Virus record (IMG/VR): IMGVR_UViG_3300029415_000001
DNA from: a virus
Lineage: Duplodnaviria > Heunggongvirae > Uroviricota > Caudoviricetes
Reading direction: 5' to 3' (one strand)
DNA: 64,000 bases
Shown: positions 24,688 through 25,944 of the stretch, piece by piece
How positions within the stretch are numbered: position 1 is the first letter of the stretch
How the letters are laid out: every line of letters begins with the position of its first letter
Position numbers and translations under genes: made by a program
The notes under the pieces: model-generated
Told to the model about the DNA's origin: nothing
What the model saw: the letters and a program-made list of their open reading frames with translations, nothing else
Databases searched by the model: none

Positions 24688-25944
24688 TTAATTACTGACA
24701 GTTTTGGGTTTTGGGAAACTGAACAGTAAATCACGATAGTACTCGTATTGTTTCTGGCGCAACTCGATTTCACGCGGAAGACCTTCGGTAATCGAATTTG
24801 TTAAGACGTCAAATTTGTCGAGAGTCGCTGCGATTCTGGCTTGTTCGTTATAAGATTCCTCCGGATTACCGGGGCATGGGAAGGGGATTTTAATGTCTTT
24901 GAGCATCGGTTTAGTTAGCTGGGGTATGCCTGCCTCAGGGATTTTGTAATTATTCTCAATGGTTTTCATGAAGTAATAAGCGTACTTCAAGTTTAATTTA
25001 ATTTTTGGCGTCAAGACCAGCAGTCGCACTATCGGAAAGAATGGTCTACTTCTATAGCTAGTCCATCCAATAGTACCTCTTGCAGATATGGTGAGACTCG
25101 GTTTCTCAATCTTGGCTCTGTCAGTCCATCCATATAGTGATTTATTACCTATACCGTTTGATAAAACGGGGATGCTGAATTCCTCGGTCTCAAATTCGGA
25201 TAAGGCATCTTTTGGTGCATCGCCGCCTGCAACAATGTCAAAAACATCATCCAATGCCTTCCACTCAACCTCACCCTCTTTAAAACTCAACAACTGGTCG
25301 CGATAGTAGTTGTACTGTTTTTTACGCATGGTAAGCTCAGCGGTAAGCTCAGCGGTAAGCTCAGCGGTAAGTGCAGTAAATTTATCCAGAATCCGAACGA
25401 TTTCAGACTGGATGGCAAGGGATTTTTCCGGGGTATCTGGGCAGGGTAATGGGATTTTGAATCTTCCCATTACGGCTGAGTTCAAGTTGTTAATGGTTGA
25501 GCTATTCAACATTTCATCAAGATATTTTTGGAAAATATCACTTGTTAAAACGTGAAATAAATAACGTGGATTTAATTTTTCATCGCATCTGACGACCCCC
25601 ATAAATCCGCCAAAGTAGTAGTCAATATCAGATTCTATGTAAGCAACTTTACCGACATGTTCACGGCTACCACTTGCTGCGCTAATTAGAATGTCGTTCT
25701 TATATAGCTTTTGCGAACTCTTTACTTTGGTGTCGAACCTCACCACCTTGACATCATTTAAATTTAAACAATTATTAGACAGCGTGATATTGTTAGCGCG
25801 AAGCACTTTATAGCCTTGACCATCCGCGCTTTCACTCGATTTGCTATAAATTAAACCACGTACATATTTTGCGACTTCTCCGAGAGTCTTCCACTCAACC
25901 TCAACCCCATCCAGCAATTTTTCCAGATAACTCATCTCGCTCAT
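24688..25944 (-). CDS. hsdS: type I restriction-modification specificity subunit with central TAEL tandem repeats
   Basis: 418 aa; two target-recognition domains separated by [32 protein letters not shown]; C-terminal conserved [20 protein letters not shown]. Confidence 0.85.
25330..25377 (-). repeat. 12-bp tandem repeat (GGTAAGCTCAGC x3 plus one variant) encoding (TAEL)n in the HsdS central linker
   Basis: Direct tandem copies visible on the plus strand. Confidence 0.9.

Follow-up and report, generated by a model that had tools for sequence, protein, structure and literature searches.

Natural TAEL-unit series in the type IC hsdS gene of a P1-like phage-plasmid: a probable rare hotspot of specificity change

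We report an intact type IC restriction-modification operon of the EcoR124 family on a P1-like phage-plasmid, in which gain or loss of a 12-bp unit encoding the residues TAEL in hsdS very probably re-sets the target specificity, acting as a rare hotspot. The operon lies in a stretch of 64,000 nucleotides that was analysed as a whole (from here: the window).

The ruler mechanism of TAEL repeats is said to go back to Price et al. in 1989 and reportedly has been textbook knowledge since. EcoR124I and EcoR124II, the type IC enzymes of plasmid R124, recognise GAA N6 RTCG and GAA N7 RTCG, respectively. Two units in HsdS correspond to N6 and three to N7, and the change between them proceeds via unequal crossing-over (PMC3874165); the adenines are separated by 7 versus 8 for two versus three units (PMC12707154). 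EcoR124I is functional with two units (PMC3874165, PMC10644984), and removal of one unit from EcoR124II changes the set of restricted phages (PMC10644984). Hybrid HsdS proteins bore out the predictions made for them, and three units are described as the apparent optimum (review PMC3874165). EcoDXXI and EcoprrI possess three TAEL units, an N7 spacer and an adenine separation of 8 (PMC3874165, PMC12707154). For NgoAV, variation in repeat number is accompanied by the measured motifs GAC N6 TGC versus GAC N7 TGC (PMC6789123). That P1-like phage-plasmids carry defence systems, type I among them, has already appeared in surveys. Literature searches on phage 673R5, the protein accessions and the type I systems of P1-like phage-plasmids returned nothing that describes the specificity of the present allele.

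Tandem Repeats Finder (TRF) assigned to the tract at 25330..25371 a period of 12, 3.5 copies with 100% matches and a score of 84, with the unit GGTAAGCTCAGC. On the coding strand the tract reads ...CTTACC(GCTGAGCTTACC)x3, and translation of the minus strand places TAELx3 at residues 193-204 of HsdS (nt 25333..25368). The degenerate fourth unit GGTAAGTGCAGT (25366-77) is unlike the repeat unit at 3 of its 12 bases. A first-pass annotation of this DNA had described GGTAAGCTCAGC three times plus a variant at 25330..25377; sequence and TRF agree with it in coordinates, unit and copy number, and its 16-residue translation of the linker repeat is exact in the register that it claimed, according to the translated ORF. 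A 24-nt pattern of two units had its sole match in the 64-kb window at the hsdS tract and 0 matches in 100 dinucleotide-preserving shuffles. Two plus-strand ORFs across the repeat (25088..25306 and 25310..25555) were discarded as mechanical antisense ORFs without support.

Pfam (Methylase_S, 6e-47) and PADLOC (Specificity_I, 1e-123) identify the hsdS product as a type I specificity subunit. It aligned to the EcoR124 S chain (7bst_A) at residues 1-34, 161-263 and 361-418; in these conserved regions at the N-terminus, the centre and the C-terminus it is near-identical to EcoR124 HsdS, whereas the TRDs differ. Conserved regions around two variable TRDs, with TAELx3 in the central one, constitute the layout of a type IC HsdS. 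Motif prediction via TRD homology was dropped, given an identity of about 30% between TRD1 and the TRD1 of EcoKI (AAC; E=3e-12) and no characterised relative of TRD2 found in the PDB. Modelling by AlphaFold2 (mean pLDDT 81) gave the HsdS fold with two long helices, residues 172-218 and 361-407, of 47 residues each, and a direct count from IP[LF]PCP to R[KQ]KQY gave 43 residues in each half of the protein. Therefore, the coiled-coil helices are equal at three units. The distal helix is, as modelled, the predicted antiparallel coiled-coil partner of the central helix.

The genes are arranged in the order hsdM-hsdS-hsdR, all on the minus strand, which matches the type IC gene order, and the ATG of hsdS overlaps the hsdM stop codon as ATGA (25941..25944). 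HsdM has 11 mismatches to EcoR124 HsdM (7bst_D; 509/520 identical, about 98%), and HsdR matches EcoR124 HsdR (2w00_A) over its full length (residues 1-1038, 2257 bits) and contains the Pfam domain EcoR124_C (8e-72). All three reading frames are intact in the window. The 121-nt gap between hsdS and hsdR contains a promoter-like site, TTAACA-18-TATTTT, a candidate for a separate hsdR promoter as judged from its sequence (Table 1). Subunit interchangeability and sequence similarity are what define families of such systems, and the assignment here is by sequence similarity: the HsdM and HsdR matches, the gene order and the HsdS layout, i.e. all features of the type that can be examined in sequence, were found. 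Membership in the EcoR124 family, as first proposed, is thus borne out by HsdM, HsdR and the conserved regions of HsdS, and the comparison with EcoR124 HsdS, also suggested then, gave matching conserved regions and a matching 12-bp unit next to differing TRDs.

Table 1. Features of the hsd operon in the window (positions count from its first nucleotide) and hsdS loci elsewhere that are referred to in the text
Feature	Position or loci	Strand	Basis
hsdM, 520 aa	25941..27503	-	ORF, Pfam, structure-chain match
hsdS, 418 aa + stop	24688..25944	-	ORF, alignment, Pfam, PADLOC
TRD1, ~aa 20-160, variable	25465..25887	-	alignment, conservation
Central conserved helix with TAEL units, aa 172-218, 47 residues	25291..25431	-	AlphaFold2, 7bst_A alignment
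Perfect 12-bp tandem repeat, 3.5 units	25330..25371	-	TRF, sequence, translation, pattern scan
Single repeat units	25330-41, 25342-53, 25354-65		sequence reading
Degenerate fourth unit (GGTAAGTGCAGT on + strand), encodes T-A-L-T	25366..25377	-	sequence, pattern scan
TRD2, ~aa 226-360, variable	24865..25269	-	alignment, Pfam, conservation
Distal (C-terminal) conserved helix, aa 361-407, 47 residues	24724..24864	-	AlphaFold2, alignment
Sigma-70-like site TTAACA-18-TATTTT	24631..24660	-	consensus match only
hsdR, 1038 aa	21450..24566	-	ORF, Pfam, structure-chain match
Terminator-like hairpin, 10 pairs then T-run, downstream of hsdR	21235..21257	-	sequence
Same-TRD pairs, 3 vs 2 units	L226/L228, L014/L193		
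Same-TRD pairs, 2 vs 1 unit	P0014/P0030, P0029/P0078, P0038/P0083		
Long homogeneous TAEL arrays	L237 (8 units); L250, L261 (7); L263, L273, L317 (6); L289, L299 (9, contig ends)		
hsdS with C-terminal (TDRQ)n	L240, L245, L284, L293, L295, L298, L316, L333, L336		

The operon sits between pmgS and phd/doc in a P1-like (Punavirus) phage-plasmid, with phd, doc, pdcA/B, lpa, pacA/B, c1 and cre on the phd/doc side. Many E. coli plasmids of ~96 kb have an hsdS identical to that of the window, as does the Punavirus Escherichia phage vB_EcoM-673R5. The P1-like neighbours and the identical Punavirus gene substantiate the earlier proposal that the carrier is a mobile phage-plasmid. Within the vB_EcoM-673R5 record (ON470615.2, locus L169, 16858..22809), hsdS shares 100% identity with the window gene, and hsdR and hsdM are annotated in fragments (HsdR1, HsdR2; two M pieces), probably owing to frameshifts or sequencing errors of that record. 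At L171/L172, one assembly with an identical hsdS has a gene for DNA polymerase III theta (HOT-like) in place of phd/doc on the left flank, and another with an identical hsdS has an hsdR shortened to 795 aa.

Several further genes of the window were recorded. Between pmgS and the hsdR end lies a 168-aa ORF (20680..21186, plus strand) with a HAD domain of the polynucleotide-kinase-phosphatase type (5.8e-11). Genes for tRNA-Asn, tRNA-Thr and tRNA-Met are located at 5674..7903 (plus strand), and the same three occur in the vB_EcoM-673R5 record. A gene pair at 38917..40949 (plus strand), situated between a gene for a ref-like RecA-dependent nuclease (38117..38755) and darB, is a candidate second defence locus; its first product is a 435-aa SIR2-like protein (Pfam SIR2_2, 3e-23; PADLOC PDC-S25, 3e-29; ThsA-like, 9e-18), and no family match was found for the second ORF (222 aa). 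In P1, this ref-darB interval is presumably occupied by the type III res/mod genes. A 2255-aa ORF (41720..48487, minus strand) resembles DarB ('defence against restriction') of P1 and has N6_Mtase and SNF2/helicase domains; we take its size to agree with that of P1 DarB and the role of DarB to be anti-type-I. In a literature survey, the P1 defence-against-restriction system is named as anti-RM. With the type I hsd operon and the DarB-like ORF, restriction and anti-restriction systems therefore reside on one element.

Repeat number varies among related genomes; its invariance there had been named in the first-pass annotation as evidence against a switch, and alleles with three, two and one units exist. 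Among the complete E. coli genomes with this TRD pair, 24/25 have an hsdS of 1257 bp (three units, or a cut copy), and the remaining record, plasmid p1002-1 of Z1002, has an hsdS of 1245 bp with two units, an exact one-unit deletion. Alignment of p1002-1 with the three-unit plasmid of AR_0372 over 13,245 bp gave 0 mismatches, the one difference being a 12-bp gap. In a large protein collection, the two-unit protein P0121 (414 aa, labelled MULTISPECIES) is recorded on 44 contigs, which stem from several sources and include a complete plasmid, and the one-unit protein P0122 (410 aa) on one 92-kb contig. Outside the repeat, both show 0 mismatches against the window protein, hence there is a series 3 > 2 > 1, in which three units dominate. 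The three-unit protein of the window had no match in this collection by cluster look-up and is present in a gene index, where it occupies 697 blocks versus 44 protein-collection contigs for two units and one contig for one unit. The dominance of three units in both comparisons (24/25; 697 blocks versus 44 and 1 contigs) indicates that changes in unit number are rare. A scan with allele-specific anchors for one to three units yielded 0 matches in metagenome contigs and a single locus, with three units, in viral contigs. A further two-unit allele, P0001, has the same TRDs, but its conserved N- and C-termini carry EcoR124-like residues, so that it may be a mosaic. P0002 (449 aa; on a 30.6 kb ENA metagenome contig) is a natural HsdS with the TRD1 of the window allele in both halves (TRD1-central region-TRD1) and two TAEL units and, by analogy to the engineered EcoR124I NT, should recognise a palindromic TRD1 half-site.

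Turnover of units is not confined to this allele. Five further TRD backgrounds yielded exact or near-exact same-TRD pairs in which unit number is the sole difference (Table 1). In a sample of 64 hsdS relatives on viral contigs, taken irrespective of repeat number, 33 had two and 24 had three units. The best 120 homologues listed include no three-unit protein, and this list was dropped as a frequency estimate because it is dominated by a small number of allele groups that have one TRD in common with the query. A degenerate scan for at least three TAEL units found 155 hsdS-like loci in many phyla. All units of a locus were identical at the DNA level in 127 of them, the odd unit in the other 28, mixed loci was mostly the first or the last, and 19 synonymous versions of the unit are in use between loci. 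Such a pattern, with units homogeneous within loci, odd units at the edges and synonymous differences between loci, is the mark of ongoing unit gain and loss.

Long arrays were found as well: among metagenome hsdS-like loci, 50 had four units, 8 five, 5 six, and 2 each seven, eight and nine. The largest array inside a contig has eight units, and the nine-unit arrays lie at contig ends. Distal helix spacing was the canonical 17 residues in all loci with a clear measurement, L237, L263 and L273 among them; L250 gave an ambiguous 37, and L261 and L317 had no measurable distal helix. In the long-array loci with the canonical spacing the partner helix is therefore not compensated, and the two coiled-coil helices of such proteins would be very unequal, as far as their sequences tell. 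Many non-enterobacterial hsdS genes carry a different 12-bp repeat, (TDRQ)n with up to at least 8 copies, at the C-terminus after the distal conserved helix (Table 1). Furthermore, half-size hsdS genes with one TRD, a stop soon past the central conserved region and 4-5 TAEL units were observed (L262, L313, L335, L241 and others); if such half-size S proteins are homodimeric, unit number would change both helices at once.

Alternatively, unit number could have changed mainly by homologous recombination with, or gene conversion from, a co-resident type IC hsdS of different unit number, which we regard as possible and on balance unlikely. Partners would be at hand, with type IC hsdS-like sequence in 1303/5426 E. 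coli genomes at up to 6 places per genome and central conserved regions nearly identical between alleles, and the mosaic-like P0001, with two units, the same TRDs and EcoR124-like termini, fits such an exchange. However, p1002-1 matches the AR_0372 plasmid fully on either side of the 12-bp gap, so no conversion tract is visible, and homogeneous units with divergent edge units fit local expansion and contraction.

Less probable is a high-frequency contingency locus, in which repeat number flips within a culture as a programmed bet-hedging switch of the phage-plasmid. The perfect identity of the units across 42 bp, three allelic states on identical TRDs, the 0 SNPs over 13 kb between two-unit and three-unit carriers and the homogenisation of units across phyla would all suit it. 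Against this, the tract has just 3.5 units of a 12-bp period and the three-unit allele strongly dominates, which argues for a hotspot with infrequent changes and not for fast phase variation.

It is more improbable still that unit changes have no functional consequence, i.e. that the two-unit and one-unit forms are defective, or that on this element the system is silent, the repeat being a fixed spacer with its optimum at three. Such a reading accommodates the equal helices at three units, the apparent optimum of three in the review (PMC3874165) and the occurrence of the one-unit allele on a single contig, but EcoR124I is active with two units, two-unit loci outnumber three-unit loci 33 to 24 in the viral-contig sample, the two-unit allele is carried by 44 contigs (MULTISPECIES), and all three hsd genes of the window are intact. 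Finally, although tandem repeats are liable to miscalling, assembly or sequencing artefacts hardly come into question as the source of the differences, with a tract of 42-48 bp that fits well within one short read, a two-unit allele seen in several sources (44 contigs, a complete plasmid among them), and similar pairs in five further TRD backgrounds.

A rare specificity hotspot, the reading that we prefer, would work as follows. Each 12-bp unit encodes one TAEL turn of the first long helix, and the antiparallel coiled coil of the two long helices would keep the TRDs apart, with three units as the symmetric state in which both helices have 47 residues. The window allele should then have an N7-type bipartite target in which 8 nt separate the methylated adenines, a prediction made by analogy to EcoR124II, EcoDXXI and EcoprrI (PMC3874165, PMC12707154), and by the same analogy we infer an N6-type target, i.e. 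a new specificity, for its two-unit sister. Units would be lost or gained when strands slip and mispair or when identical units recombine unequally, and such a change would shift and rotate the recognition domains by about one base-pair step, creating a new specificity. Natural unit change is seen on the window allele, albeit rarely, and behaves as a mutational hotspot by which specificity would diversify from lineage to lineage.

Taken by itself, one more uncharacterised specificity allele in a textbook system changes little. Both the TAEL ruler mechanism and natural repeat polymorphism with motif change (NgoAV) are already known. Slightly beyond the existing literature go the 3/2/1-unit series on near-identical phage-plasmids, the family-wide turnover and the 8-9-unit arrays. 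The plasmids of AR_0372 and others (three units), Z1002 (two units) and the one-unit allele form a ready natural experiment on the ruler, which can probe the rule of one turn per base pair for new TRDs and below two units. Unit homogenisation across the family and arrays of up to 8-9 units generalise the 1989 observation on EcoR124, and uncompensated long arrays bear on the question raised in a 2014 review of a coiled coil with unequal helices. A bolder proposal, that P1-like phage-plasmids actively re-key their restriction-modification identity by TAEL units and that the natural range of the ruler extends far beyond N6/N7, is put forward tentatively, as we consider it doubtful. Its wider-ruler part draws on one-unit alleles, 4-8 homogeneous units inside contigs and the uncompensated partner helix; if re-keying were true, elements otherwise identical (0 SNPs in 13 kb) would become mutually restricting lineages.

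Among the characterised systems, NgoAV of Neisseria gonorrhoeae, also type IC, is alike in that the number of a tetra-amino-acid repeat in the central region varies from strain to strain. It differs in that its repeat is LEAT, its gene is chromosomal, its specificity is also set by an hsdS-truncating frameshift and its motifs have been measured. EcoDXXI (TCA N7 RTTC) and EcoprrI (CCA N7 RTGC) have three units, the state for which N7 is predicted in the window allele, but their TRDs are unlike those described here; moreover, EcoprrI is chromosomal and linked to the anticodon nuclease gene prrC, whereas no prrC lies between the hsd genes of the window. The closest relatives are EcoR124I and EcoR124II, with HsdM ~98% identical, HsdR near-identical over its full length, the same gene order and the same HsdS conserved regions. 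EcoR124II shares the 12-bp TAEL unit ACCGCTGAGCTT (primers in PMC10644984) and has three units as the window allele does, while EcoR124I corresponds to its natural two-unit sister. In contrast to EcoR124, both TRDs differ, and therefore so do the half-sites, and the residue after the array is T instead of N. Moreover, the EcoR124 systems are carried by a conjugative plasmid and the window allele by a P1-like phage-plasmid, and the latter has, in public data, a one-unit form as well.
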